64,000 nt of DNA from Escherichia phage vB_EcoM-RPN242: the sequence record OL656110.1. One strand, 5' to 3'. The notes beneath the pieces were generated by a model. It was given only the letters and a program-made list of their open reading frames with translations, was not told the DNA's origin and did no database searches. The translations under genes and the position numbers were made by a program. Shown here piece by piece: positions 2,631 to 48,169 of this stretch (positions are counted from its first letter, which is position 1; every line of letters starts with the position of its first letter).

Positions 2631-3359
2631 TTACTTCAGCGCGTTCTTCAGATTATCGGAACCAATGCTGTTGATGACACCTCCGGCGCAGATATCTTTC
2701 GCCCACTCTGAGATCACGTTGGCAAAAGAGAAGTTAAGACACTTACCAACCATGTCTTGGATATGGGCTAACTCTGCTGCAATACCGTTCGTGATGTCCT
2801 GAGCAATAGAGGCTACTGATGCGACAGCAGTGTCGATGGCCTGAGTAACTTCAGCAGCCAGTGCCTGAATAGCATCAAGACCAGCACCGACGCCCTGAGC
2901 TACCAACTCAGCCAGCTCATTCATCTTGTTTGTGATAGTTGTGAGAACACTTTGCATGGTGTTGATCCACTGTTTGCCGAGGTTCTGAATAACCCCAAAT
3001 GCATTATTGATCAGATCACAGTTGTTCGGTTCTCGACCTATAGACTTCAGGGCGGACTTATACGACACAGATGTACCGATGCGGGAATATGCCTCGTTCA
3101 CTGACTGGTCGCCATAGTTGTTCAAAGTAGTGATGCTGTTGTTGGCTGAGTTGAACATTGCTGTAGATTCGTTGAGTTTGGCTGTAGTCAACCCACCTGC
3201 CGTCAGCGCTTCCTGAATCTGCGCATTTCCGGTGTTAGCCAGTGACGCTGTAGTCGCCTTACCACTGGTGATTAACCCCTGTGAGGCGCTGCTGAGGGAC
3301 GGGAGAGGATTGGTAAAGGCGTTGCCCTGTGATAGGGCGTCATAGATCTGTGCGTTCAT
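2631..3359 (-). CDS. late protein, Ala/Ser/Thr-rich, likely virion-associated, 242 aa
   Basis: Track start 3401 lies upstream of the late promoter; re-called to ATG at 3359 which follows GGGGGTATTTTCTT. Confidence 0.6.
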   Translation of the reverse strand: MNAQIYDALSQGNAFTNPLPSLSSASQGLITSGKATTASLANTGNAQIQEALTAGGLTTAKLNESTAMFNSANNSITTLNNYGDQSVNEAYSRIGTSVSYKSALKSIGREPNNCDLINNAFGVIQNLGKQWINTMQSVLTTITNKMNELAELVAQGVGAGLDAIQALAAEVTQAIDTAVASVASIAQDITNGIAAELAHIQDMVGKCLNFSFANVISEWAKDICAGGVINSIGSDNLKNALK

Positions 3360-3383
3360 AAGAAAATACCCCCATGGATGATG

Positions 3384-3394
3384 GGGGTATTTAG
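3384..3394 (-). promoter_or_regulatory. late promoter motif CTAAATACCCCC with inverted copy at the ribosome-binding site
   Basis: Minus strand reads CTAAATACCCCCATCATCCATGGGGGTATTTTCTT-ATG; 11-12 bp inverted repeat AATACCCCCAT / ATGGGGGTATT. Confidence 0.6.
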
Positions 3395-3608
3395 GGATCA
3401 TGGTAGTTTGTAAACGAAGTTGGACCAGAACTTACGAACAAACTTCTTGACATAAACCATTCGGTTGGCGTATTCCCCATCCTTCAGGTCATTGTAGGTC
3501 TCGATCCCTACCGCGCCCAAGAAGTACGCCGTGAAGATATAGCAGAACAGATTGATGACGACAAACATGATGTATCTCCGCTGTGTGTACTCAATTATTT
3601 ATGGTATG

Positions 3609-26755: not shown

Positions 26756-27114
26756 ACCGAGGAATAGAAAGAAATAAGCCCGAAGGGGCTTTGATTATCT
26801 TTCTGTGGTTATGGTCATGGATTCAAGACCTCCGCATTCTTCAGGAACTATTGCAGGGGTGCTGGTACAGCCAGGGAATGGAGAACGCAAACAAGGCGAA
26901 CCAATGGAACCACAGTAGTAGGTTCAGATGCTAGTGTTAAGGTACAGGGTACAGACATTGCCAACAGAGATAACGTATTAGCCACTTACACACTTGGTTC
27001 GACAGACCCTTTCATGGTAGAAGGTATTCAATTGGGTATGTTTAATATCTCTGGGCAAGTAATCACCTTAACAGCAGTATCAATTAGGGTAATGCAAACA
27101 GTAAATTCTATATA

Positions 27115-27140
27115 AGAAAAGACCCCAAATGGGGTCTTAG
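27115..27140 (-). terminator. terminator hairpin AAGACCCCAAATGGGGTCTT after tailspike gene
   Basis: Minus strand: hairpin followed by TTTCTTATA. Confidence 0.6.
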
Positions 27141-27155
27141 TTTTACAGTTATAAG

Positions 27156-29381
27156 TCACGCTTCTGGCGAGGGGATAGTAAACCAATCGGACGCTGTTCC
27201 TGTTGTAGTGCCTTTATGCCTCCAGCCACTAACAGTTCTTTTTACCGTAGGGCTATCCTGCCAACCTGTTGCCGGGAGAAAGAAATTCCTCACTGGGGCG
27301 GGGTTTAACGCTCCAGTAGCTGGCGTGGCGGTTCCAGTCTGAGATGATACGAAGGTGGTTACTGTTGAGTAATCTATTACGTTATCATCATGAAACGCAT
27401 TCGTGTATAGATTTGCGGGTGCTGAGTTAACGAAGAATGCCGTAGTAACCCCGCTAACCTTGTTTCTATATACGTTGTTCCATCTACAGTTACCACCAAG
27501 GCGTATACCCTCAGAATCAGAAGCCCCCGCAATGGTGTTACTATCTATGTCACAATATTGGAAACTTTGAGCTACTAAAAACCGGCAACTATTACGCGTA
27601 ACCCTGCCGTAAGTAGACGTACCATTGGCATAGTAAACTGTTATATTGCCAGATGTTAAACAGTCTTTAATCGAGAAATTGGTCATAGGGCTAGTAAGGT
27701 ATACACTGCCAGTACCTTTCACTGTAATGTTTATATTTTTTCTAACTGTCAGGGTGTATGCGGGCGCGCTATACATACTGACTATATACCCGTTCGCCCC
27801 TGTATTTACAGGGACATTTGCATCCACTGTCACATAATCACAGTCCTTAATTAATATCGCAGCGGTTGTTTGAGCGCCAGTCTTTACGAATCTAATAGAC
27901 GGGTTTGTGATGGTAAAGTTCTGGCATTGCTCCATAAAGATAACGCCTGATACTTGATCGTCTGCCGCCAGCGAGTCTACAACAATACGCTGAGCACCAA
28001 ATGCCCCCATAACCCCATACTTTCCGCCTTTAATATAATCAGCATGGGTGTTGCAGTCGAAGCATTTTGCACCAAAATATATACCTCCGTTGTTGGCCGT
28101 AGGTTTTAGGGTGTTATGGGATGTACGGATGTTACGGCAGCCAGCATAAGATATTATTTGCGCATCCCCACCGGTCCCTCCAATGTGGGTCGTACCTGTA
28201 ACAGTACAATCTGTAGATCCGTAACCAAAAAATATATTACCATTTCCGACACGCCCGGTATGGGTAGTGTTGTGGTACACCACACCGTACGCGTTATCAT
28301 GCCTTGAACCGCCATTTCCATTATAATCAAAAACAGTACCATGGAACTCTATAAGCGAAGCCCCCACAGATTGGTACATGTAGCTAGACCCTGACGCAGA
28401 ATTTTTTAAGATTCCCCCGATGAACTTAGTAGCGTTGCCTTTTATAAGATAAATAACCGAATTGGTGGTAGTTAGGTCCCACGGTAAAGCCGTTGCTAAA
28501 TTTACGGTAGCACCTGATATGGACGAGATTAAAAAAGATTCGCCTTGGTATCCGGTTACATCCGGATTCTGTGCGTTGGCAATATACCAAGCGTCACTTG
28601 TGTCCTCAGTGCGTATTACCAACGCCCGAGTATACCCAGTTCCTGCCACCTCAGATGTTAATGTGATGGACGTTGCTCCGGAAGCCGCAGGGGAAAGCAA
28701 GCTGAATTGGCTCTCGCTGACGAAATTAAGAGCATTAGCGGTCAATGATGTCAACCCAGCACCGTGACCGAAAGTAAAAATCGTACCTTTTGGTATGTTG
28801 ACTTGTGAATGGGAAATTGTCATGCCCGGAGGAACAAAAACATTCCCCGAGTTAATGGCTAACTGTAAACTAGATGCCTCATCAGACCCATCACCGACAA
28901 CCCCAAAAGCACGCACGTCCCGTAAATTAGGATCTGTCTGCGGCTTCCAGTCAGCGTTACCAACTGGGTTAGTTCCTGCGACAATAGTTACAGGTAAGGA
29001 ACCTAAGTAGGTGTAACCTATGCCATTATAAAATAGTAATTCATTTCTAGTATTCACAACTAAACCAGTAGCAAACGAGTCGGATAGGTTCACGAACTCT
29101 CTACGTGTAGCAGCCAGTTCCCCCAAATCAACTGTGCCTGCGGAATGAACCAGGACTGCATGTTTATTGAGGCTTACGGCAGTGGTTCCTACTGGAAGTA
29201 CAGGTAATGAGTAAGCACGTTGGGTAGACTTGTCATAGATTACTTTGTAGCCACCCAAGTCCACTCCCACAGCAAAGTAGACTACTTCATTTTGCTTAAC
29301 ACCAAACTTACGAGCAATGGCTTGCTTATTGGTAAGAATACCAGTAGAGCCTTTACCGCCTTGTGAGAACATTTCGTTCAT
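27156..29381 (-). CDS. tailspike protein (741 aa)
   Basis: N-terminal module (KQAIARKFGVKQNEVVYF...YKVIYDKSTQRAYSLP...VDLGELA) is shared with the other tailspike genes. Confidence 0.7.
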   Translation of the reverse strand: MNEMFSQGGKGSTGILTNKQAIARKFGVKQNEVVYFAVGVDLGGYKVIYDKSTQRAYSLPVLPVGTTAVSLNKHAVLVHSAGTVDLGELAATRREFVNLSDSFATGLVVNTRNELLFYNGIGYTYLGSLPVTIVAGTNPVGNADWKPQTDPNLRDVRAFGVVGDGSDEASSLQLAINSGNVFVPPGMTISHSQVNIPKGTIFTFGHGAGLTSLTANALNFVSESQFSLLSPAASGATSITLTSEVAGTGYTRALVIRTEDTSDAWYIANAQNPDVTGYQGESFLISSISGATVNLATALPWDLTTTNSVIYLIKGNATKFIGGILKNSASGSSYMYQSVGASLIEFHGTVFDYNGNGGSRHDNAYGVVYHNTTHTGRVGNGNIFFGYGSTDCTVTGTTHIGGTGGDAQIISYAGCRNIRTSHNTLKPTANNGGIYFGAKCFDCNTHADYIKGGKYGVMGAFGAQRIVVDSLAADDQVSGVIFMEQCQNFTITNPSIRFVKTGAQTTAAILIKDCDYVTVDANVPVNTGANGYIVSMYSAPAYTLTVRKNINITVKGTGSVYLTSPMTNFSIKDCLTSGNITVYYANGTSTYGRVTRNSCRFLVAQSFQYCDIDSNTIAGASDSEGIRLGGNCRWNNVYRNKVSGVTTAFFVNSAPANLYTNAFHDDNVIDYSTVTTFVSSQTGTATPATGALNPAPVRNFFLPATGWQDSPTVKRTVSGWRHKGTTTGTASDWFTIPSPEA

Positions 29382-29669
29382 AATGACCTCTTTGTTTTTC
29401 TAAGTAAGCCTCCCAACGTGGGGAGGCATGTAAGTAAAGTTATTTACCGATTCTCAATTCAGCTAACCAACCTAGAATTTGTTTATTGATTCTAGACGGG
29501 TAAGCAGCCTCTAACCATGCACATCGGTCTGGTATTAAACCTCACCTTGAACCAGCAGGAGTAACAAATTCTTTCCATCCTTTCTGTAGAACTCAGGTAT
29601 ACGCTTCTTTAATACCATTATTACCAACAATACTTGCATACACAACAGACACTAAACTCTATATAAGAA

Positions 29670-29688
29670 AAGGTCCCGAATGGGACCT
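29670..29688 (-). terminator. terminator hairpin AGGTCCCGAATGGGACCT
   Basis: Just past gene end 29700; minus strand followed by TTTCTTATAT. Confidence 0.55.
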
Positions 29689-29699
29689 TTATAATAAAA

Positions 29700-32108
29700 T
29701 TAAGGGCTAACCCGATACCACCCGTCGTAGCTAATATACAAACGTTTACCGGACACAACTGCATCAATGCGAAGCGTTTTTTCACCTTCAGTAAAGAACG
29801 CTCCTCCAGTGTTCCCGATGTTCATTCGAAAGCTGGCTGGAATATTTCCAGAGGTAAAACCGATGTCCCCGTTGTTCACCCCTGTTACTGCTATGTATGC
29901 GTAATCCCGCGCGACAGGAAATCCTGTCACAGATATGAACTGACTGGTGCCGGAACTCCATTCAATTGTCACATCAAACACACCGAATATATGAGCAAAA
30001 TCTCCGACATAATTTATGTTATGTACGGTATACTCGCCGTATGATATCACCGCATTGGTGCCTGATTGAACTGTAATTTCAGGCGAACCGGGGTCATTCG
30101 CTAAGAAAGTACGGTCTGGTCTGATTTTGGCGGATGAATTCGCCACCGTTCTGGTAACGTTGTTGAGCCAACCGGCCTCCACCGGATCCCCATTTCGCGT
30201 AGACCTTACAATGTTGTTACGCAATATTGCGTTAAAAAACGTAATATCGGAGATGTAAATATTATGGTGCTGCCCGGCTACGGCCCCGCCAAACAACATC
30301 CCATTAGAGTTGTACTCATAAGATACGTTGTTCTCAATGATGCTGTTGCGCGCCACTCCATTTAATTCTAGCCATGATATGTTAGACGGGCCTGTGTAAT
30401 CAGAACCAAGTCTAATACTGGTGTTATTGGTGAATGAGCTATGGTCGAAATTATCCAATCTCCAGTTAATACCCAGAGTGCCTTCTTGACCATTCCCAGT
30501 TACCGTTACCCCTAGCAGGTTCTGTAATATATAGCCATAACACACTCTTGTCCTGTCCGGATAATAGTCGTTCCTGTTAGTGTGATCACAGGCATTAGCC
30601 TCTATAACAGAGTATTTAAGATCCCGATAGCAATGCCCATAATCACGGCAACTATTACTATAGTTAGTAGATATTACGCATGAAGTGCCGTTGTTTATAA
30701 ATATCCCACCGAGACATGCGGTAACGCGGTTGTTTCCTACTCGCGACGCAAATACAACAGGGAGAATTAGCCCATACTTGCAATCGTAAATATAGACGTC
30801 TTCTATCGTGGCGTCGGATACCACGCCTGCATTTACGATACCAAATTCTACCGCGTGGTTTTCCGTTGTAGTTTTTGTCCCATGCAGAGTAACCCCTGTG
30901 ATGACACCGGACCATCTTGAACTACTAGAATCCCCTAAACAAATAACCGCATTCATATCTGTAGGCAGGGTTCCGGTATATCCTCCAGATAGTGCAGGCG
31001 CCGTCACCAGAACTGTAACGGTAGTGGATGTCGTTTTCGTTATAGTAACTGATTCGCGACTTCTCCCTATTACTGATACATTCGATGGTAGAGCAAGAGT
31101 ACTGCTTATTTTATAGTTACCATCCGGGAAATAAACCACGCCTTTTGTGGTGCTGGCATAAGCTATAGCTGCTTTTATAGCTACCGTATCATCAGTAGCT
31201 CCGTCACCAACAGCACCAAAATCTTTAACGTTATAGTAGTCTTTAAAATGGCTATCAATGGTTCGCTTAATTGCAGAAGAAACACCAGATAAGCCAGAAT
31301 TTACTAATGTTCCCCCATCAGTAACCATAGCCGTTTTATATACCTGCAACTCATTCTCCACTGGAGTTACATCATTGGGTGCAGGGAGCAGGTCAACAAC
31401 AATCCCACCAGGATTGTATGTTAGTTGGTCACCATTAACGGAAGAAATATATACGTTAGTAGGCAATGTAGGCAACCCATATGCCTTCTGCTCACTAACA
31501 GAATAAATAATCTTCTTACCATTGAGGGACTGAGTAGTATCGGTGCTAAGAATTACTTCACTATCTTTAACGTTAGTAGCACGAGCGATTTCTTGAATAC
31601 TTCGGTCAAACAACGGACTGATATTCGGTTGTTTAACAGACATTTCAGCGACTACCCAAACGCCTGCTGTCAGCGCAGTTTGTAAAGACACTTTCCCTGT
31701 CGTGCTGTCATAGGAATATTCAATTTCGGGTGTTTTGTACTCACCACCGATATAAAGAGATTGGACTCCATAAGATGTGTAATCAGGAGTGAACTCGGTT
31801 TCACCTCCTATAGCCTGAAACTTATAGATTCGAATCCCAGTTTTATAATCTTCTGGAGACAGAATCTTATCAAACAGACAGAACACAACGTCACCTTTGG
31901 ATAATGCGCGTCCGAGATTTAACGTATTTCCATCGATTTCAAAGTTGTCTAACGGAACTTGCATACCACCGTTGATTGTGACTATACCAGTGACAGGGTA
32001 GAAAGGGAGGGAGATAAACTTCTCTCCGCCCGTTGCTGTGTAAGTGTATGGAATCTGGTGCGGAGCTGTTACGACCGCTCCAAAGATGCTCTCGACGTTT
32101 CTGGTCAT
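29700..32108 (-). CDS. tailspike protein (about 802 aa)
   Basis: ATG at 32108 follows GGGGTATTTTCAA; shares the module IARATNVKDSEVIL...KKIIYSVSEQKAYGLP with the others. Confidence 0.7.
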   Translation of the reverse strand: MTRNVESIFGAVVTAPHQIPYTYTATGGEKFISLPFYPVTGIVTINGGMQVPLDNFEIDGNTLNLGRALSKGDVVFCLFDKILSPEDYKTGIRIYKFQAIGGETEFTPDYTSYGVQSLYIGGEYKTPEIEYSYDSTTGKVSLQTALTAGVWVVAEMSVKQPNISPLFDRSIQEIARATNVKDSEVILSTDTTQSLNGKKIIYSVSEQKAYGLPTLPTNVYISSVNGDQLTYNPGGIVVDLLPAPNDVTPVENELQVYKTAMVTDGGTLVNSGLSGVSSAIKRTIDSHFKDYYNVKDFGAVGDGATDDTVAIKAAIAYASTTKGVVYFPDGNYKISSTLALPSNVSVIGRSRESVTITKTTSTTVTVLVTAPALSGGYTGTLPTDMNAVICLGDSSSSRWSGVITGVTLHGTKTTTENHAVEFGIVNAGVVSDATIEDVYIYDCKYGLILPVVFASRVGNNRVTACLGGIFINNGTSCVISTNYSNSCRDYGHCYRDLKYSVIEANACDHTNRNDYYPDRTRVCYGYILQNLLGVTVTGNGQEGTLGINWRLDNFDHSSFTNNTSIRLGSDYTGPSNISWLELNGVARNSIIENNVSYEYNSNGMLFGGAVAGQHHNIYISDITFFNAILRNNIVRSTRNGDPVEAGWLNNVTRTVANSSAKIRPDRTFLANDPGSPEITVQSGTNAVISYGEYTVHNINYVGDFAHIFGVFDVTIEWSSGTSQFISVTGFPVARDYAYIAVTGVNNGDIGFTSGNIPASFRMNIGNTGGAFFTEGEKTLRIDAVVSGKRLYISYDGWYRVSP

Positions 32109-32140
32109 TTGAAAATACCCCATAAAGGATTTGCCAATAT

Positions 32141-32151
32141 GGGGTATTTAG
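32141..32151 (-). promoter_or_regulatory. late promoter CTAAATACCCC with inverted repeat
   Basis: CTAAATACCCCATATTGGCAAATCCTTTATGGGGTATTTTCAA-ATG; 12-bp arms. Confidence 0.6.
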
Positions 32152-32185
32152 TCTGAACTAATAAATTTATAAACAAATGTATAGA

Positions 32186-32220
32186 GAAACCCCGCCGAAG
32201 CGGGGCTAGTTTTTATTTGT
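32186..32220. terminator. hairpin CCCCGCCGAAGCGGGG with T-run on the plus side
   Basis: Same hairpin core as at 7347 and 34851; located just past the end of 32227..34776. Confidence 0.55.
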
Positions 32221-32226
32221 GGTGTG

Positions 32227-34776
32227 TCAATTGAGTTTTGATATCTCTACAGTTATACCGAATACGTTATTCGGTCTACTTGTGGTTGTAGCTATAGTTA
32301 GCTCAAAGAAATGCGCGTTTATATCTGGTGACTGTGTGTATCCCGCAGAATTAGTTAATGTTACATTGAGTGATATGTCCGAATCTGTTACGCCGTTTAT
32401 GCGAATTTCATTCACAGGTCCTGATAGCGACGCGGCGGAAGTTGCACCTATCTTATGATTTACCAGGTACGTCTTCTCAATATAAGCAACGGATCCCCCA
32501 TTATTATATGAAGAGCACGACTTAACTTTTACCAGTAGGTTTTGCGATTCTAATGTTCCATAGTTATCAAAAATCTTTAAAACTTTGTTAGCAGATGCAC
32601 CAGAAATGCTTCCACAGTTCACTTCCCATAATGTAGTTCTATTCGCATTCGGTGCGTTCTCATACATGTAGAAACTACCATCTGGAATTACCCTGTTGTT
32701 TATTAATGTTTTCAGATTTCCGCAGTTACCTATTAGTCTCACGTGGGCATTGATGTTTGTTAATGTTACTGTTTTTATTTTTGATTCTGTGTTTGCGCAC
32801 CTAATAGAACCACCCATGCAGTTAATATTTTCGTAATAGACATTACCAGCTTGCCACGGTAACGCGAAAATATCGTCCGCCCGGTTTTTATAATTGAGCG
32901 CAACATTAGCAGCAATCCAGTCTCGGTGCATAGAAGAATCACCAGTAAATGTGACGATACCTATTTGAGGGTCTTCTGCTGGGGTTGTGCCCAAACTGGC
33001 AACTATATTGATATCTGTCAGCTCACCACCAAGACATCTTATATTTGGCATATCATATTCTTCGGTGGCAAATACGTTACGCCATTTAGCATCAAAACCA
33101 GCGTGCGAGTCCATCGTGGCGAAGTTATTATAACCGAAGCACTTTTTAACCTCGAACTTGTTGAACCATGTTGTTGGGGAGGCAGCATGTCTACAGAATG
33201 ATGCTGTGATGCTATCAACAACTGTATCGTAAGTGCCCGCCGCAGGGCTGATAGGATACTGACACCTATTAGCAACTACATTGCCAATCCTTGGCATATA
33301 GCAAGCTATTAATAAGTACGAGGAACCACCACTGGTTTCCACGTCACCAGAAAAGACTGGCATATAAAAACCACGGAACCATGAAGATGAAACCCCAAAT
33401 GATGCGGTGCCTATATTAACAAAAGATGAGTTATCACGGTTGTTAAAGTGCTCCATCTTGAAGTTATTGAAAATCAACCTTACCGGTTTGTACCTGTTAA
33501 CCTTAACGTTGTTTGCTACTAGATGATCGAATAGCGCTGGCCTATCAACTTTCATATTAGAACCAGATTCACGCTCTGCAATAAACAACTCCCTTGAGTT
33601 AAAATTCCACTGAGTCTCGTACGTCTTGTTGTCCTCTATATAAATCAAATCACCCTCTACAGCCCCAGCCACCCGCGCAACTGTGGAGCCGCTTACCATA
33701 TCAGCTAGAAGTGAAGACTGAATCTCGGTTGATGACAGGTGCATTTCCACCCCATCAGAGGCCCCGAACAGCTTTATGCCAGACCAATCAACAACTAAGT
33801 TTTTATCAATCGACAATAGTTCTATATTACTGGTTACAGTAACCTCACCGACTGACCTGAAGTATCCACGGCACCCGGATGTGTAAGCTACAGTCAGGAA
33901 TTCAGATATAGTCTGGCCTGATACAGACCCTCCAGCGGTTATGCCGAAATCATCTCCGCAAATCGCGCTTATAGGGGTAAATGATGTTAATGCCGGCTGG
34001 GAAGCAGACCTGACCCACATTGTACCGCCGGTTGAGCATACCGAATCTACAGGTAACTCTGCCTCCGTGGACGCAATCATCTCGTAAAAAGAGGAGAAAT
34101 GTTTGTATATTCCAGCAACTTTGTAACCACCAGTTATAGGATTAGTCCCAGCGACAACTATACCAGCAGGACCGGAGAACGCCTTACCAGTGCGTTCTTG
34201 TAGTAGCACATCGTTGGCGTTCACTAGTGTACCGCCCGACTCAAAGCTACCATCTACTAGATTATAGCCTGCTGTTGCATAGCTACGGCGCAACGCCTCA
34301 CGGGTCTGTGTACTTGTGAACTGATTGGAGCACCTAATATAACCACTCCCTGGAAGAGTAGGGTCTGTGCCAGCAGGAACTACTTTAGGTAATGCCCCAT
34401 CCCAACGGTACTTCCCATCTGTAAAGACAACTAATTCATTCTTGGTATTAACTGTTACACCGGTATCAAATGACCCAGACAATGTGACGTACTCTTCACG
34501 AGATACAGCCAATTCCCCGAGATCTACAGAACCTGCTGAATGTACCAGGATTGCCTGTTCGTTCAGACTTATCGCAGTCGTTCCTGAAACAATACCTGAA
34601 GGAAGAGAATAAGCCCGTTGGGTAGACTCATCATAAATTACTTTAAATCCACTGAGATCAATACCAGCAGTGAAATAAATGACTTCGTCTTCTTTGACAC
34701 CGAAATTTCGAGCGATAGATTGTTTGTTAACTTCTATGGAAGTGGAGCCGCGTGGTTGATTGAATTGAGAAATCAT
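32227..34776 (-). CDS. tailspike protein (849 aa)
   Basis: Shared N-terminal module; contains a 160-bp segment nearly identical to one in the next gene. Confidence 0.7.
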   Translation of the reverse strand: MISQFNQPRGSTSIEVNKQSIARNFGVKEDEVIYFTAGIDLSGFKVIYDESTQRAYSLPSGIVSGTTAISLNEQAILVHSAGSVDLGELAVSREEYVTLSGSFDTGVTVNTKNELVVFTDGKYRWDGALPKVVPAGTDPTLPGSGYIRCSNQFTSTQTREALRRSYATAGYNLVDGSFESGGTLVNANDVLLQERTGKAFSGPAGIVVAGTNPITGGYKVAGIYKHFSSFYEMIASTEAELPVDSVCSTGGTMWVRSASQPALTSFTPISAICGDDFGITAGGSVSGQTISEFLTVAYTSGCRGYFRSVGEVTVTSNIELLSIDKNLVVDWSGIKLFGASDGVEMHLSSTEIQSSLLADMVSGSTVARVAGAVEGDLIYIEDNKTYETQWNFNSRELFIAERESGSNMKVDRPALFDHLVANNVKVNRYKPVRLIFNNFKMEHFNNRDNSSFVNIGTASFGVSSSWFRGFYMPVFSGDVETSGGSSYLLIACYMPRIGNVVANRCQYPISPAAGTYDTVVDSITASFCRHAASPTTWFNKFEVKKCFGYNNFATMDSHAGFDAKWRNVFATEEYDMPNIRCLGGELTDINIVASLGTTPAEDPQIGIVTFTGDSSMHRDWIAANVALNYKNRADDIFALPWQAGNVYYENINCMGGSIRCANTESKIKTVTLTNINAHVRLIGNCGNLKTLINNRVIPDGSFYMYENAPNANRTTLWEVNCGSISGASANKVLKIFDNYGTLESQNLLVKVKSCSSYNNGGSVAYIEKTYLVNHKIGATSAASLSGPVNEIRINGVTDSDISLNVTLTNSAGYTQSPDINAHFFELTIATTTSRPNNVFGITVEISKLN

Positions 34777-34802
34777 GATAATACCCCAAGAATGACCAAT
34801 AT

Positions 34803-34813
34803 GGGGTATTTAG
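34803..34813 (-). promoter_or_regulatory. late promoter CTAAATACCCC with inverted repeat
   Basis: CTAAATACCCCATATTGGTCATTCTTGGGGTATTATC-ATG. Confidence 0.6.
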
Positions 34814-34848
34814 TCTGAACTAATAAATTTATGAACAAAGTTATAATA

Positions 34849-34872
34849 AGAACCCCGCCGAAGCGGGGTTTA
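34849..34872. terminator. hairpin CCCCGCCGAAGCGGGG
   Basis: Third copy of this hairpin core; just past gene end 34876. Confidence 0.55.
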
Positions 34873-34875
34873 TTG

Positions 34876-37800
34876 TTATGATGCATTTGCTGATTTGTTT
34901 AAATACCATCCGTAGTTCGTTTTTATTAACTCTACAATCTCCCCGTTTGTCTTGTATTTTGTCTTCCCGGTTTCTGTATTATACATAATTCTGTCGGTGA
35001 CAGAGACGCCGGACGCTTGTTTTGAAAGCGTCACAACAGTGTTGCCGGATAACGGAAGTATTGATATCCTTTGTCCGATATATCCACCAGTGATTGACGT
35101 TATCACTGATCCATTACTTCCAGCGTCGAGATAAAATACGTCGCAAGAGTTGGCATCTAATGTAGTTGTTTCAGTTGTTAGCGTTTTCGTTGGCGACGAA
35201 ATACCAAGCACAAATGATGAACCGTTCCATGTATATTCTTTGCCGTCAGCAAGACCAATCACTCGCTCGTTGATTCTTAAATCGGGTGCAAAAGTCTTTC
35301 TAATGTCAACAATTTTAATAGTGCCACAAAACGGGACAGGGATAATCACGTTACCTGCAAGCCTGTTAATAGTGTAAATTGAATTGCTGATCGTCCACTG
35401 TCTACCGTTCCACATACTCATAAATGAACCAGAAGATAGAAGCACGGTTGAACTGTAACCTGCTTCCAAAGCATTTGTGTCTGTTATCATGCCGCGATCA
35501 ATAGGATTGCTAAAATCGTCAGAGCAGTCGAATACTCTAATGTTTGCACGTCCTTCATAATTACCTGATTGACCAACAGGTGCGATAACAAAGAGATAAT
35601 CCTTATCAAAACCATAATCAGGGCCAACGCGTAAGAACGACGCCATACAGTTAGTGGTAGGGAACTGTCCTTTTACAACCCACTTTCCACTAGAATCTTG
35701 CATCAATAGCTTTTGAATGGCTATTTTGTACGGCTTAGTGGTCGTATCTGCTGCGCGCTCAATGGCAAACGGTGTTCCGTCATAAAAATTTCCGAAACCA
35801 ATTTCACCGCCAGATGTACCGAGAGTATCGGTATCCGTGTCTTTCCTGACATCTTCACCGTAGGTGTAGTTACCGCTATCATCAACTGTGATATACCCCT
35901 CAACTATTCCGGTAGATAGTTGAGTTAAATAATAATAAGGAATTGCAGGCTTGCCATTTATGTACCCGACTTGTGTAGGTGCAATTGATGAGAAGTAAGC
36001 ACCAGATGGTTTAACCAATGGCGTAATATCAACAGGGGTGCTCCATGTATTGCCACCATCCTTTGATATGACATATTCAATAGTTGATGTTGTGTCAGGG
36101 TTAGTTCCTTGTTGTGCATGCCCCCACCCAGTAATCCCCTTCATTGATGTAAAGAAACAATACAAATATCCATCAAGATTATTTAGGAATAGTACCGTTT
36201 CAGAAGTGGCATATCCTGGCCCTTTGTTAACAACAGTTCCAGTGGTCCAGTTCACACCGTTATCATCAGATATTAGGTAATCAATGTGCATAGGTGTGCC
36301 GTCCTGTCCTGGGTCAATATTAGCACCATCCTTCACTGTGTAGATACATACCACCCGCCCACTTGGAAGTGACACCGCTTTTGGTGCAAAGTTAAATACA
36401 TTCTCCACATAAGTTTGCAACTGTAAGCGCAAATTATTGTTAAAGCTTCTTGAGTATTTATTCCCAAAAGCGAAATTAAATCTATTTTTTGCAATTGATT
36501 GCCTTTTGTAAAGCTCAAAATCTTTATCCTTGACTGCTCCGTTAACTAAATCAACTCCGTCATCATCAGCCAGGTCACTTCTTAAACTTACATCACCAAC
36601 ACTTAACCATTTTCCTGCACCAGTACCACCAGCACTCCCTGGGGTTGAGCCAGCAGAAACCTCTTTAGGCAATTCCCCATCCCAGCGATACTTCCCATCT
36701 GTAAAGACAACTAATTCATTCTTGGTATTAACTGTTACACCGGTATCAAATGACCCGGACAATGTGACGTACTCTTCACGAGATACAGCCAATTCCCCGA
36801 GATCTACAGAACCCGCTGAATGCACAAGTACAGCGGAAGGACTAAGACTGACAGCAGTAGTACCAGGGGCAATATCAGCAGGCAAGGGATAAGCCCTTTG
36901 CGTCTCCTTGTCATAAATAACTTTATACCCACTTAACGCAGCACCAACACTAAAATAAACGACCTCTGTATCTTTAACATTGGTTACACGAGCAACTTCC
37001 CGCAAAGTATAATCAATTTGATTGTAGATGTTTGGTGTTCCATTGATAATTACAACAACTTCATCCTCTGGTTCCAGTTCTTGCGCAAGAGTGATTTTAC
37101 TGGTTGATGGATCGAATGTGAATCCCAGATTTTTATACTGGCGACTTCCGTTTATATCAATGGCCGGAACATCGTCAACAACGACGTCCAACGTGATTTC
37201 GGTTTCACCGCCAATCGCTGAACCCCCATTATAGACCCAGGTAATCGTAGAAGAACCAGAACCACCGACATTACCCAATTGAATAGGAGTATATTCAATC
37301 ACCTGAAGTTCTGTGCTGGCTGGCAAAGAAGGACTGAAAGTGATTACATTCCCATCTAGTGAATATTTGGATTCCGCAAGACGTTTTCCGTCAGCATACA
37401 CGTCCACGATTGTTGGTGGAGTATTGAGAGCGACAGAACTTGTTTCAGACGCCAAAATTTTTGTAAAGATTTCACGACTGTAGACACGGCCTTGGCCAAG
37501 ACCGACGCCGGATGTAATAATCCAACCTTGTTCAGGTCCAGACCAAGTGAACGTTGCTGATACGTTATCAGTTGTTATAGCCATGTCTTCAGTGGAGCCA
37601 TACAAATTATTTCCAGAAGGAGACACGGTCAATGGGTAAGTGGCAAATTTCCCATAAGCATCACAAATAGTAACGGAATCCCCAATACGCGTAGGGGAAG
37701 GGAGAACCACTGTAGATGCCCCTGTGGTATTATTAATGAGATAGCCTCGCCCTTCAGTGAGCGTTGCCGTAGAGGCATGCGGAAGGACTTCCCAGCGGAT

Positions 37801-38037
37801 ACCACCGCCACCCAGCGGCAACCATCCACCATTTTCATAGAAGCCCTCAAATTCGTCGGAGTCGGCATTGTAGCGAACGGAAGACGGGAGTCCTGCGCTG
37901 GCATTACCCTCGGGTAAAGTCAGGACAGCATCTGGTCCATGCTCAATCGTACCCGTGTTGAGGAGACCAGCCAAAGTAGACTGCTCTTCAGCCGCCAGAC
38001 CGAGAGGGAAAACAGGCTGTGTTGGTTTATTAGCCAT
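34876..38037 (-). CDS. long tailspike protein (about 1053 aa) with extended N-terminal domain
   Basis: ATG 38037 follows GGGGTATTTGAA; internal copy of the shared module (VARVTNVKDTEVVYF...YKVIYDKETQRAYPLP...VDLGELAVSREEYVTLSGSFDTGVTVNTKNELVVFTDGKYRWDG). Confidence 0.7.
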   Translation of the reverse strand: MANKPTQPVFPLGLAAEEQSTLAGLLNTGTIEHGPDAVLTLPEGNASAGLPSSVRYNADSDEFEGFYENGGWLPLGGGGIRWEVLPHASTATLTEGRGYLINNTTGASTVVLPSPTRIGDSVTICDAYGKFATYPLTVSPSGNNLYGSTEDMAITTDNVSATFTWSGPEQGWIITSGVGLGQGRVYSREIFTKILASETSSVALNTPPTIVDVYADGKRLAESKYSLDGNVITFSPSLPASTELQVIEYTPIQLGNVGGSGSSTITWVYNGGSAIGGETEITLDVVVDDVPAIDINGSRQYKNLGFTFDPSTSKITLAQELEPEDEVVVIINGTPNIYNQIDYTLREVARVTNVKDTEVVYFSVGAALSGYKVIYDKETQRAYPLPADIAPGTTAVSLSPSAVLVHSAGSVDLGELAVSREEYVTLSGSFDTGVTVNTKNELVVFTDGKYRWDGELPKEVSAGSTPGSAGGTGAGKWLSVGDVSLRSDLADDDGVDLVNGAVKDKDFELYKRQSIAKNRFNFAFGNKYSRSFNNNLRLQLQTYVENVFNFAPKAVSLPSGRVVCIYTVKDGANIDPGQDGTPMHIDYLISDDNGVNWTTGTVVNKGPGYATSETVLFLNNLDGYLYCFFTSMKGITGWGHAQQGTNPDTTSTIEYVISKDGGNTWSTPVDITPLVKPSGAYFSSIAPTQVGYINGKPAIPYYYLTQLSTGIVEGYITVDDSGNYTYGEDVRKDTDTDTLGTSGGEIGFGNFYDGTPFAIERAADTTTKPYKIAIQKLLMQDSSGKWVVKGQFPTTNCMASFLRVGPDYGFDKDYLFVIAPVGQSGNYEGRANIRVFDCSDDFSNPIDRGMITDTNALEAGYSSTVLLSSGSFMSMWNGRQWTISNSIYTINRLAGNVIIPVPFCGTIKIVDIRKTFAPDLRINERVIGLADGKEYTWNGSSFVLGISSPTKTLTTETTTLDANSCDVFYLDAGSNGSVITSITGGYIGQRISILPLSGNTVVTLSKQASGVSVTDRIMYNTETGKTKYKTNGEIVELIKTNYGWYLNKSANAS

Positions 38038-38070
38038 TTCAAATACCCCTAAATGTGTTCGTTTCATCTA

Positions 38071-38081
38071 GGGGTATTTAG
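38071..38081 (-). promoter_or_regulatory. late promoter CTAAATACCCC with inverted repeat
   Basis: CTAAATACCCCTAGATGAAACGAACACATTTAGGGGTATTTGAA-ATG. Confidence 0.6.
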
Positions 38082-38089
38082 TTTTCACT

Positions 38090-39280
38090 TTAGAAAGAAG
38101 CTACAATAGAATAATCGACCGAACAAGCAGTCGTCGTGTTCGCATTAACAACGGAAATTCTCAATTTACCACCCACCACAGCTCCTGTGAACGTCACTGT
38201 ACCGCTCGTACTTTTCTGAACCAACAACTCCGACTTGATAGTTCCGTCGCGAGTTATGGTTACTCGATATGTATCAACAACGTTACCTGTCCCCCATTGC
38301 GCGGTCACCAGTATTTGACAAAGGTTCACCAAATCAAAATCTGGAAGAGCCGTCGTCCCAGAAGCCGAAACCGTGTAAGAAGACAAATTCGTTTTGGTAC
38401 GATAAACGGCGTTCCCTAAACTATTGTCGACAGAGGTCATCTTGGCATTATACGTTGATACATTAACTTTATCACTGGAAAGAGAACTGATGCTGTTATC
38501 CAACGATGCCATCTTAGTGTTGTACGTGCTGACCTCGACTTTATTACCCAGAGACGTATTGATATTGGAGATACTCAAATCCAACGATGCCATCTTAGTG
38601 TTGTAAGTCGATGTGTTGACTTTCCCGTTCAACGACGTGTTGATGTTATTAATCTGGGACTCTAGACTCAGCATATCTGCGTCATACGCTGTCGTTGTCA
38701 CATATCCATTAAATCGGTTATCTGCAAACAACGCATCAAAAAATGCAGTCATTGTCCAATAACGCACTCCAGAATCTGTTTGTACTGGAATTGAAGTCGG
38801 CATCGTTGATCCGGTATACGCAGACAATCTGGTGAAATCCAAATTGAATTTGTAATATCCGGATGCCAACAACTCCCCAGCCAAACCAGAACCAGGTGGG
38901 GTAGTGTCTTCACTGACACCATGCTTTCTCAGCATGCTCAGGTTAACACCATCTGTCGCTACCATAGGTTCATCCGCGATAGACAGTTTCTTTCCAGTCG
39001 GAACAGTCAGGCCGCCGTTGGCTGTCAACAACGCAGCAAAAGTCTTGTTCCCGTTGATCGTTTGTTCACCACCGTCGGTGCGAATCACTTTGTTTTCCAG
39101 TGTGTCGTAGATAATATCCACAGAACGCTTCAGCTCGTATGTCAAATGAGCTGAAGGAGGGAACAACGGATCATCAACAGCGAAATCGTTGACAACATCA
39201 GTCTTGCTTATTTTATCGTCAACAGAAGAAAGGATTGCATCAATCTGCTGACCTGTGTATCGACTCAGAAAATCGGCCAT
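38090..39280 (-). CDS. tail fibre protein with tandem 26-27-aa repeats
   Basis: 396 aa; repeats NINTSL..KV..STYNTKMASLD; AGGAG ribosome-binding site. Confidence 0.6.
   Translation of the reverse strand: MADFLSRYTGQQIDAILSSVDDKISKTDVVNDFAVDDPLFPPSAHLTYELKRSVDIIYDTLENKVIRTDGGEQTINGNKTFAALLTANGGLTVPTGKKLSIADEPMVATDGVNLSMLRKHGVSEDTTPPGSGLAGELLASGYYKFNLDFTRLSAYTGSTMPTSIPVQTDSGVRYWTMTAFFDALFADNRFNGYVTTTAYDADMLSLESQINNINTSLNGKVNTSTYNTKMASLDLSISNINTSLGNKVEVSTYNTKMASLDNSISSLSSDKVNVSTYNAKMTSVDNSLGNAVYRTKTNLSSYTVSASGTTALPDFDLVNLCQILVTAQWGTGNVVDTYRVTITRDGTIKSELLVQKSTSGTVTFTGAVVGGKLRISVVNANTTTACSVDYSIVASF
38400..38640. repeat. in-frame tandem repeats of about 78 nt inside the tail fibre gene
   Basis: tccaacgatgccatcttagtgttgta recurs about 78-79 nt apart. 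Confidence 0.6.
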
Positions 39281-47664: not shown

Positions 47665-47670
47665 TCCATC

Positions 47671-47681
47671 CTAAATACCCC
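47671..47681 (+). promoter_or_regulatory. late promoter CTAAATACCCC with inverted repeat, plus strand
   Basis: CTAAATACCCCATGCAAACCAGTGTGGGGTATTT-ATG. Confidence 0.6.
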
Positions 47682-47704
47682 ATGCAAACCAGTGTGGGGT
47701 ATTT

Positions 47705-48169
47705 ATGAAAACCTTTCTTGAATATCTTAAAGAGGCGTCTGAGGCTGAACCCAAGTTCGATAACATGCGCCTCTTTCACGGCTCCAACGTAGGATTCGAT
47801 GTCTTCGACTTTGAGCGCTTCGGTCAGACTGACTGTGGTACGATGGGACCTGGGTTCTATCTGACAGGCAACGAAGAAGAGGCACAGCGCTATGCAGAGA
47901 ACGCCGTCCGCTACCGCCAGAGTGGTGAACCCCATGTTCTGGTGTTTAACGTCAGTGTTAAGAAGCCCCTCGAACTCGACTCTAACAATGTCTCGGCCTG
48001 GGAAGACGCTATGCGTGAACTTGGTATCGAACCGGGTAAGATCCATGAGAACGCCGCCGAGCTAATTGCTCAGGGCTATGACTCCACCATCGTGCTGGAC
48101 CGCTTTGGGTTGCCTATGGTGCGTGAGATCGTCCTGTACAAACCAGGCCTGGCAGTGCGGGAAGCCTAA
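47705..48169 (+). CDS. late-expressed hypothetical protein, 154 aa, with an HGS motif
   Basis: RLFHGSN...GFYLTGN suggests a nucleotide-modifying fold but is unverified; driven by a late promoter. Confidence 0.55.
   Translation: MKTFLEYLKEASEAEPKFDNMRLFHGSNVGFDVFDFERFGQTDCGTMGPGFYLTGNEEEAQRYAENAVRYRQSGEPHVLVFNVSVKKPLELDSNNVSAWEDAMRELGIEPGKIHENAAELIAQGYDSTIVLDRFGLPMVREIVLYKPGLAVREA

Follow-up and report, generated by a model that had tools for sequence, protein, structure and literature searches.

Described systems close to the locus studied here include the four-tailspike clusters of Kuttervirus CBA120, for which structures are available (PDB 4oj5, 6w4q, 5w6f/6nw9, 5w6h and 7rej), and of Agtrevirus AV101, which encodes four O-antigen-specific TSPs. 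The architecture of such branched complexes has been described (PMC11414711). Sørensen et al. (2021, 2023) noticed a short stretch of nucleotide identity just upstream of the receptor domain of tsp1, tsp3 and tsp4 and proposed recombination there, and a recombination site has been placed at the distal TD1 motif GTTAVSL (PMC8432352; Sørensen et al. 2021, 2023). In this published work the TD site was inferred from alignments, with the exchange reproduced by engineering; tsp4/tsp5 recombination has been shown experimentally in the literature. Finally, a cluster identical to that of phages PC3 and PH4 has been reported in the phage examined here, RPN242. Both the four-tailspike cluster and the TD-junction recombination site are thus already known, and what we report is correct but ordinary: the locus supports known ideas and opens none that are new. 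Its value is that of a natural, datable exchange at the TD junction, in which two genomes of ~97% identity are set apart by one conversion tract.

We analysed a stretch of 64,000 nucleotides (the window) from Escherichia phage vB_EcoM-RPN242 (OL656110.1). Judged from its sequence, the locus is a standard four-gene tailspike (host-recognition) cluster, TSP1 to TSP4, of an Agtrevirus-type Ackermannviridae phage. The four ORFs all lie on the minus strand and span positions 27156-38037: tsp1 at 27156-29381 (741 aa), tsp2 at 29700-32108 (802 aa), tsp3 at 32227-34776 (849 aa) and tsp4 at 34876-38037 (1053 aa). The longest possible ORFs of tsp2 and tsp4 cover 29700-32123 (807 aa) and 34876-38067 (1063 aa). 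Starts at ATG 32108 and ATG 38037 are favoured by a conserved GGGGTATTT-N3-6-ATG context; these are the methionines to which residue 1 of CBA120 TSP2 and TSP4, respectively, aligns, and the two proteins were therefore set at 802 and 1053 aa. The sizes that a first-pass annotation of the four consecutive large ORFs had given for these two were borne out by this ribosome-binding context and alignment. Downstream of the cluster lies a DUF4815/VriC-like ORF of 1628 aa and upstream lie Baseplate_wedge and gp6-like genes, the position between VriC-like and baseplate-wedge genes that characterizes tailspike clusters of Ackermannviridae. These flanks, together with the matches to CBA120 TSP1-4 structures and the annotation of the counterparts in relatives as tail spikes, support the reading of this as a tailspike locus. 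An Rfam search of the tsp locus returned no match.

The closest relatives of the cluster are Agtrevirus (Aglimvirinae) and not Kuttervirus CBA120. PC3 and PH4 (ON184125/ON184126; Aglimvirinae, Agtrevirus group) share the same four genes, their order, receptor domains, intergenic cassettes and a 318-nt spacer, and their tsp loci are 97-98.5% identical to the window at the nucleotide level. The TSP4 receptor domain of PC3 is 100% identical in amino acids, as is, in nucleotides, its spacer between tsp2 and tsp1, for which we found no relative beyond PC3/PH4 and no convincing ORF. PC3 differs in tsp3, which is without the tsp4-type tract described below and is there 82% identical to its own tsp4. 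In AV101 the cluster likewise lies between VriC and baseplate genes, but the receptor domains are others and the TD blocks are 66-79% mutually identical. CBA120 is alike in gene order and in its anchor/XD/TD architecture, whereas it belongs to another subfamily (Cvivirinae) and all four of its receptor domains are unrelated in sequence; TSP4 of the window has a probable propeller in place of a beta-helix, and the TD blocks of CBA120 are 66-78% identical to one another.

The initial annotation had also pointed to CBA120 TSP1-4 for comparison, and the N-terminal regions of TSP1-TSP4 indeed matched the solved structures of their CBA120 counterparts with E values from 1e-53 to 1e-195 (phmmer). In TSP4, residues 1-338 (37024-38037, minus strand) matched the N-terminal anchor and the gp10-like XD1-XD3 branching domains (7rej/7rfo, E = 1e-195), followed by a TD1-TD2 tandem-repeat module at 36541-37008 (minus strand; 5w6h residues 5-159, E = 3e-66; Pfam Tail_spike_N E = 1.8e-21), which holds GTTAVSL and one copy of the repeat discussed below. 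TSP2 residues 1-252 aligned to residues 1-253 of 6w4q (CBA120 TSP2) at E = 2.9e-127, with XD domains present; the XD and divergent TD portion occupies 31353-32108. TSP3 aligned to residues 1-143 of 5w6f/6nw9 at E = 1.3e-71. TD1/TD2 was present in TSP1 (28917-29381), TSP3 (34348-34776) and TSP4, with matches to 4oj5, 5w6f and 5w6h, respectively; Pfam Tail_spike_N was found in TSP3 and TSP4, and each of the three TD1/TD2 proteins contains GTTAVSL or GTTAISL. The module VK..EV.YF..G..L.GYKVIYD..TQRAY.LP...VDLGELA, which had been assigned to all four genes as a shared N-terminal element, was carried by TSP1, TSP3 and TSP4, with identities to TSP1 of 57% for TSP3 and 51% for TSP4. The TSP2 copy, by contrast, is divergent (32% identity, VKDSEVILS...KKIIYSVSEQKAYGLP) and is without VDLGELA. 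The N-terminal placement held for TSP1 and TSP3, but in TSP2 and TSP4 the XD domains come first. Within the module, the upstream half is specific to spike position, TSP3 orthologues being 91-99% identical even in comparison with CBA120, whereas the repeat block itself is mosaic.

By homology to CBA120, TSP4 would anchor the complex to the baseplate and would be joined to TSP2 through the XD2 domains; TD1 of TSP1 would dock on XD3 of TSP4, and TD1 of TSP3 on XD3 of TSP2. Each spike carries a different C-terminal domain, predicted to recognise polysaccharide and to be of enzyme type, and with four different receptor domains one virion could thus use several O- or K-antigens.

The four receptor-binding domains are mutually dissimilar, and each is common to a different set of phages, in agreement with the divergent C-terminal receptor-binding regions proposed at the outset. 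The data support their assignment as divergent receptor-binding domains of polysaccharide-enzyme fold: in place of non-enzymatic fibre folds, which would have spoken against a tailspike locus, we found beta-helix, PF12708, K1-lyase-profile and BNR/GH33-like signatures. Three of the domains (TSP1, TSP2 and, at the profile level, TSP3) read as beta-helices and one (TSP4) probably as a sialidase-like propeller; the beta-helix fold expected by the first-pass annotation was found for TSP1, for TSP2 by PF12708 and for TSP3 by profile, but not for TSP4. The TSP1 domain (27159-28916) is a right-handed beta-helix, and the pectate-lyase-like beta-helix domain of TSP2 matches PF12708 at 30648-31235 with E = 1.8e-19. 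For the TSP3 domain (32230-34347), a link to K1-lyase-type beta-helices is supported at the profile level, through remote homologues: a profile of these homologues, built after a representative-library search, matched a K1 depolymerase (9k4a, 3e-13) and a K1 lyase (7w1c, 2e-12). Pfam (searched up to E = 10), PHROGs and NCBIfam gave no match for the receptor domains of TSP1 or TSP3, and the AF2 model of the TSP3 domain was poor (pLDDT 45, with 17 homologues in the alignment) and was left out of the fold search.

In TSP4, homologue and profile matches point away from a beta-helix and towards a BNR/sialidase-like propeller for the receptor-binding domain at 34879-36540 (minus strand); it comprises a putative BNR/Asp-box GH33-sialidase-like beta-propeller and a C-terminal domain. 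PF13088 was carried by 20 of the 20 homologues of this domain, and the family profile matched GH33 sialidases at 5e-13 to 1e-11, across only ~100 residues. The domain alone scored 28.5 bits against BNR_2, under the Pfam cut-off of 31.4. Some Arg, Tyr, Glu and Asp residues do not vary across the family.

We then considered the repeat shared by tsp3 and tsp4, for which an identity of about 95% had been announced. Positions 34386-34548 in tsp3 and 36666-36828 in tsp4 (both minus strand) were 95.1% identical, with 8 mismatches in 163 nt, and the longer segments 34361-34548 and 36641-36828 were 93% identical across 188 nt. The core, at 34409-34533 in tsp3 and 36689-36813 in tsp4, contains a single mismatch in 125 nt (99.2%) and includes a 68-nt exact run. 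It corresponds to TSP3 residues ~82-122, from the end of TD1 to the start of TD2, and the tract thus sits at the TD1/TD2 junction, directly after the GTTAVSL motif. The repeat is the same phenomenon, in the same place, as the nucleotide identity of Sørensen et al. A weak third copy (~61%) occurs in TSP1. Identity in the paralogous sequence that flanks the repeat was only ~64%, and third-codon identity between tsp3 and tsp4 was 87-100% within the block versus 13-60% outside; such a sharply bounded block of near-identity, synonymous sites included, within diverged paralogues is the pattern left by gene conversion. Moreover, among 18 within-genome pairs from 8 genomes, only the tsp3/tsp4 pair of the window exceeded 85% identity in the block, the corresponding pairs of other genomes reaching 57-84%.

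Comparison with PC3 was informative about the origin of this block. Between 34200 and 34800, 28 of the 31 mismatches between the window and PC3 fell inside 34414-34555 (binomial P = 6e-15). Over the 125-nt core, PC3 tsp3 differs from the window at 20 nucleotides yet at only 2 amino acids in the patch, which points to a conversion tract running from tsp4 to tsp3. At these sites PC3 TSP3 retains bases common to the TSP3 of AV101, CBA120 and YX22, and the window has TSP4-type bases; the tract is accordingly absent from the PC3 orthologue, which has position-specific sequence in its place. In the repeat, the window's tsp4 has the same sequence type as its orthologues in PC3, LHE287 and A221. Synonymous identity within the block and these TSP3-type bases in PC3 thus bear out the earlier suggestion of recent recombination or gene conversion, and they support the view that the 160-bp repeat is a real and recent gene-conversion patch. 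On grounds of parsimony, tsp4 was likely the donor and tsp3 the recipient, with PC3 as the ancestral state and the window as the derived one. A short ectopic tract of ~125-140 nt would have been copied after the split of the window lineage from PC3/PH4, within a stretch that is common to TSP1, TSP3 and TSP4 and may be dispensable for position-specific docking. The same stretch would be the site at which receptor-binding modules swap from one spike position to another and among phage families; breakpoints of module exchange were mapped to 28918-28921 and 36684, within TD2 or at its end. Taken together, we give a probability of about 0.88 to a branched, Agtrevirus-type four-tailspike receptor-binding complex in which the repeat represents a tsp4-to-tsp3 conversion tract.

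A conserved TD domain kept by purifying selection could by itself account for the near-identity of the two copies, without recent DNA exchange, and the peptide is indeed the same in TSP3 and TSP4 for ~50 residues and conserved in PC3 TSP3 too. This explanation is hardly credible, however, in view of the sharp rise in third-codon identity at the block, the nearly unchanged peptide that PC3 encodes with 20 of 125 different nucleotides and the much lower identity of the same pairs in other genomes; a selection-only origin was rejected on the basis of the synonymous sites. We judge it very improbable as well that assembly or polishing produced the patch as an artefact, through tsp4 reads misplaced on tsp3 over a repeat shorter than the read. 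No second sequence with a window-type tsp3 junction was found by exact pattern in IMG/VR, in JGI metagenomes or by gene-index and exact-protein look-up, as would be expected of an artefact, but the tract is in frame and has clean tsp3-specific flanks, differing from tsp4 at 34477 and then again from 34408 onwards. Furthermore, a tsp3 of the PC3 type would be only ~82% identical to tsp4 in the tract, which makes mis-mapping unlikely.

More weight, although still well short of an even chance, goes to histories in which the block was exchanged between phages, with the tsp4 or tsp3 of a co-infecting Agtrevirus as the source, or in which PC3 is the derived genome and regained a TSP3-type patch. Exchange between phages is compatible with the 96-97% identity of the LHE287 and PC3 tsp4 genes to the tract core, with the mosaic TD blocks of relatives and with recombination at the TD site having already been proposed and engineered. 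Against both histories, the window's own tsp4 is the nearest donor, with 1 difference in 125 nt versus 4-8 for other tsp4 genes. Derivation of PC3 faces a further difficulty, since PC3 tsp3 is a two-part mosaic, TSP3-type down to ~34474 and then of the type accompanying the receptor-binding module: a single module acquisition fits this structure, while the reverse history requires a donor bearing the same odd mosaic. Within the preferred reading, conversion from tsp4 to tsp3, we entertain as a speculative extension, somewhat less probable again than exchange between phages, that the TD1/TD2 junction does more than supply passive homology: repeated short tracts would homogenise it among paralogous spike genes and maintain it as a shared landing pad, so that receptor modules stay interchangeable from one spike position to another and with unrelated phage families (Schitoviridae, T7-like and P22-like). 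If true, this would imply selection on DNA for evolvability.

As for expression, the claim that three of the genes have late promoters was confirmed by a motif scan, which placed the late-promoter-type motif CTAAATACCCC before tsp4 (38071-38081), tsp3 (34803-34813) and tsp2 (32141-32151), all on the minus strand. The window contains 8 such sites with at most 1 mismatch (7 exact) versus 0.48 expected, and CTAAATACCCC has been named as an Ackermannviridae regulatory motif (PMC7283392). Upstream of tsp1, where a terminator and the 318-nt spacer come first, the best match to the motif had at least 4 mismatches. Sigma-70 promoter-like sites were not enriched over shuffles in our scan (24 versus 26.6 expected). 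Hairpins on the minus strand follow all four genes, as had been claimed for their terminators: those after tsp4 (34851-34870), tsp2 (29669-29690) and tsp1 (27119-27138) passed the coding-strand scan, but the GC-rich hairpin after tsp3 (32190-32205), with the same stem as that after tsp4, has a weak T tract. A terminator-plus-promoter cassette at 34796-34879 (minus strand) recurs at 32134-32216 as two segments of 94% and 86% identity (families D4 and D7). Thus, tsp4, tsp3 and tsp2 would each be served by their own late-type motif and hairpin, and tsp1 by a hairpin without a motif. A further, similarly speculative possibility is base pairing between the motif and the ribosome-binding region in tsp2, tsp3 and tsp4, which would confine translation to transcripts initiated at the gene's own promoter.

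Finally, two receptor domains of the window recur in the gp66/gp63.1 two-spike system of Gamaleyavirus (G7C-like Schitoviridae), as seen in phage nithesis (PV252060). Its tail protein has the TSP4 receptor domain (95.8% identity in nucleotides, 98.7% in amino acids), and its tailspike has the TSP1 receptor domain (95.5% in nucleotides), a TSP1-like TD region (86%), together with the downstream flank. Nithesis is nonetheless a 72-kb podovirus with two spikes and other N-terminal attachment regions. A myovirus of 150 kb and a podovirus of 72 kb here share two receptor-binding modules with hardly any change. The hairpin after tsp1 is also present in nithesis, there between convergent genes. The convergent downstream gene is intact in nithesis, whereas the window has a frameshifted 3' remnant of this Gamaleyavirus gene at 26841-27115 on the plus strand. 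By this comparison, the remnant came along with the TSP1 receptor-binding module, and as a pseudogene it indicates the direction of transfer between myovirus and podovirus.

The four tailspike genes (tsp1 to tsp4, encoding TSP1 to TSP4) all lie on the minus strand and are transcribed from high to low coordinates. Their open reading frames span 27156-29381 (tsp1, 741 aa), 29700-32123 (tsp2), 32227-34776 (tsp3, 849 aa), and 34876-38067 (tsp4). In three of the four genes, GGGGTATTT was observed 3 to 6 nt 5' of the ATG. Since this element precedes the ATGs at 32108 and 38037, we set these as the real starts of tsp2 and tsp4; the corresponding methionines aligned with residue 1 of TSP2 and TSP4 of CBA120, a Kuttervirus with solved tailspike structures. 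This gives lengths of 802 and 1053 aa for the two proteins, and the sizes listed in the first-pass annotation (741, about 802, 849, and about 1053 aa) agree with the corrected starts.

That annotation had proposed a tailspike locus and a comparison with CBA120 TSP1-4, and the N-terminal parts of all four proteins indeed matched solved CBA120 spikes: TSP1 residues 1-155 matched 4oj5 (E = 7.5e-53), TSP2 residues 1-252 matched 6w4q (E = 2.9e-127), TSP3 residues 1-143 matched 5w6f/6nw9 (E = 1.3e-71), and TSP4 residues 1-338 matched the anchor/XD fragment 7rej (E = 1e-195), with the 156 residues that follow matching 5w6h (E = 3e-66). Baseplate-wedge genes (PF23786 and gp6-like) were found upstream of the cluster and a 1628-aa DUF4815 ORF, annotated as VriC in relatives, downstream, the flanked arrangement published for Ackermannviridae (PMC10791037). 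The entire locus was collinear with that of the sister phage PC3 at 97-98.5% identity in local BLAST, and the remainder of the window was 96-98% identical to the Aglimvirinae phages A221, PC3/PH4, ZQ1, and YX22. The initial database search had returned only 51% coverage against PC3, an effect of record layout, because PC3 tsp4 crosses the start of its circular record. The locus thus nearly duplicates a cluster that is already deposited and annotated and whose kind has been studied well. Just 5' of tsp4, a 396-aa ORF (38090-39280) had no Pfam match; within it, at 38417-38608, a 39-nt unit occurs in three direct copies (64-87% identical, spaced by 72 and 81 nt), which probably reflect an internal protein repeat.

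The related module reported for the N termini of all four proteins is the TD1-TD2 domain pair. Its motif was common to TSP1, TSP3 (57% module identity to TSP1), and TSP4 (51%), but the TSP2 copy was divergent (32%) and lacked VDLGELA, in agreement with the published oddity of the TSP2 TD1 domain, which differs from other TD1 domains (PMC8432352). The position is N-terminal in TSP1 and TSP3 only, being internal in TSP2 and TSP4. In the CBA120 work, TSP4 serves as the virion anchor of the complex, XD2 domains join TSP2 to TSP4, and XD3 of TSP4 and XD3 of TSP2 are the docking sites for TD1 of TSP1 and of TSP3, respectively (summarized in PMC11414711). Every domain needed by this architecture was found in the four proteins, which, by homology, would assemble as in CBA120. 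Within 34549-34699, the half of the module that lies upstream, TSP3 orthologues, CBA120 included, were 91-99% identical, whereas TSP3 and TSP4 were only 64% identical; such a position-specific, very conserved half fits a docking role. The block after GTTAISL/GTTAVSL was mosaic among orthologues and moves together with the receptor-binding domain.

It is in this block that tsp3 and tsp4 share a repeat. A repeat search gave 93% identity between 34361-34548 and 36641-36828; the identity was 95.1% for 34386-34548 versus 36666-36828, matching the value of about 95% noted initially, and reached 99.2% in the core (34409-34533), with one mismatch and a 68-nt exact run. A codon-level profile revealed an abrupt step between the two genes, from nucleotide and third-position identities of 51-73% and 13-60% upstream of the block to 96-100% and 87-100% inside it. 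In the segment 34200-34800, the window and PC3 differ at 31 positions, 28 of which fell within 34414-34555 (P = 6e-15), where PC3 tsp3 carries the bases of AV101, YX22, and CBA120 tsp3 and the window carries those of the tsp4 type. Selection at the protein level could also keep two copies alike. However, the TSP3 peptides of the window and PC3 are only two residues apart in this interval despite the 28 clustered nucleotide differences, and protein-level selection is therefore excluded as the cause of the nucleotide identity. The closest match to the tract was the window's own tsp4, with 1 difference compared to 4-8 for other tsp4 genes. Among 18 within-genome tsp pairs from eight genomes, no other pair exceeded 84% in the block, and searches of IMG/VR and JGI metagenomes and an exact-protein look-up turned up the tract in no further genome. 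The third-position step and the PC3 comparison thus bear out the recent recombination or gene conversion suggested in the first pass. The simplest history would be a conversion tract of 125-140 nt acquired after the split from PC3, with parsimony favoring the direction tsp4 to tsp3.

Breakpoints of exchange with other phages were located at the end of TD2, at 28918-28921 in tsp1 and 36684 in tsp4, and the homologue P0001 has the TSP3 module in common only from the WDG motif onward. The start of the block, at the GTTAVSL motif of distal TD1, is just where Sørensen et al. proposed recombination for Kuttervirus (PMC8432352), and tsp genes with such homology were seen to recombine experimentally (PMC11414711). 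The first-pass reading of the repeat is thus correct, and the phenomenon that the repeat exemplifies is already known and published.

Exchange also extends to other phage families. In nithesis, a Gamaleyavirus (Schitoviridae) phage with two spikes, a gp66-like protein carries the TSP4 receptor domain (95.8% nt, 98.7% aa) and a gp63.1-like spike carries that of TSP1 (95.5% nt), the latter match running 315 nt past the tsp1 stop codon. There, the sequence equivalent to the tsp1 flank closes a convergent gene, of which it forms the 3' end; this gene is intact and is also kept by pSb-1, Bp4, and further N4-like phages, whereas the window holds only a remnant (26841-27115, plus strand), 5'-truncated and frameshifted, comprising the last 80-90 codons at 95% nt identity to nithesis; the same remnant is present, unannotated, in A221, PH4, and SKML-39. 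An intact gene in nithesis versus a frameshifted remnant here points to transfer of the TSP1 module and its flank from a Gamaleyavirus-type genome to an Agtrevirus recipient. The TSP4 and TSP1 receptor modules were also found behind T7-type and P22-type N-terminal domains and in prophages, that of TSP4 additionally behind one further tail-fibre type, and the TSP3 module in the 148-149-kb phages KKP_3264 and AV126.

The C-terminal regions, described initially as divergent receptor-binding domains, resembled enzymes rather than non-enzymatic fibre folds in TSP2, TSP3, and TSP4. TSP2 matched PF12708 (pectate-lyase-like; E = 1.8e-19). The TSP3 domain had only six full-length homologues and a poor AF2 model (pLDDT 45), and a search of 1.84 billion representatives yielded 70 remote relatives. 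PF12708 was present in 11 of the 41 relatives scanned, and their profile matched the K1 depolymerase 9k4a (3e-13 over 255 residues) and the K1 lyase 7w1c (2e-12), with a CRH...DSH motif within the match and in the window's TSP3. TSP3 therefore probably folds as a beta-helix of the lyase type. For TSP4, a beta-helix was rejected: all 20 homologues carried BNR_2, and the family profile matched GH33 sialidases (5e-13 to 1e-11 over about 100 residues). The TSP4 domain alone scored 28.5 bits, whereas Pfam sets its cut-off at 31.4. Kuttervirus genomes already have annotated spikes of a sialidase-like kind, distant at about 30% identity. Downstream of TD2, an 80-residue segment of TSP3 (aa 160-225, about 34100-34300; REALRRSYA.AGYNLVDGSFE.GGTLVNANDVLLQERTGKAF) was matched at 75-90% identity by hundreds of otherwise unrelated metagenome spike/fibre proteins, whose C-terminal domains are diverse (SGNH, beta-helix, and P22 head-binding types among them), and resembles a further junction module in wide circulation.

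The CBA120-type motif CTAAATACCCC precedes tsp4, tsp3, and tsp2, in keeping with the own late promoters suggested for three spike genes; before tsp1 none was found, the best match having 4 mismatches. With one mismatch allowed, the window contains 8 sites (7 exact) versus 0.48 expected. This motif is listed among Ackermannviridae regulatory motifs (PMC7283392). A hairpin, a candidate for the terminator ascribed to each gene, lies 3' of all four (with a weak T tract for tsp3), and a terminator-plus-promoter cassette is duplicated at 32134-32216 and 34796-34879. At five of the seven exact sites, (C)TAAATACCCC is followed 11-21 nt on by its complement GGGGTATTT, itself 3-6 nt before the start codon: on the minus strand 5' of tsp4 (38034-38082), tsp3 (34773-34814), and tsp2 (32105-32152), and elsewhere at 3344-3395 (minus) and 47670-47711 (plus). 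The eighth, one-mismatch site is the reverse complement of one GGGGTATTT partner sequence. The predicted hairpins (-12 to -21 kcal/mol) would bury the ribosome-binding region and might form only in read-through transcripts; the T4 lysozyme gene, with its early and late transcripts, offers a parallel.

A non-coding spacer of 318 nt (29382-29699) separates the stop codon of tsp2 from the start codon of tsp1. Besides the terminator at 29669-29690, it contains another hairpin, GCCTCCCCACGTTGGGAGGC (about 29410-29429); neither a late motif nor a convincing ORF was found in it. The PC3/PH4 spacer is 100% identical, and no further phage record gave a match; in the other relatives compared, the tsp2-tsp1 gap is within about 50 nt. 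Just 3' of tsp1 and tsp2, 27095-27151 and 29646-29702 are 75% identical over 57 nt and have a hairpin plus CTCTATATAAGAAAAG in common. They may form an intergenic cassette of a second shared type, which, if true, could support whole-gene swaps.
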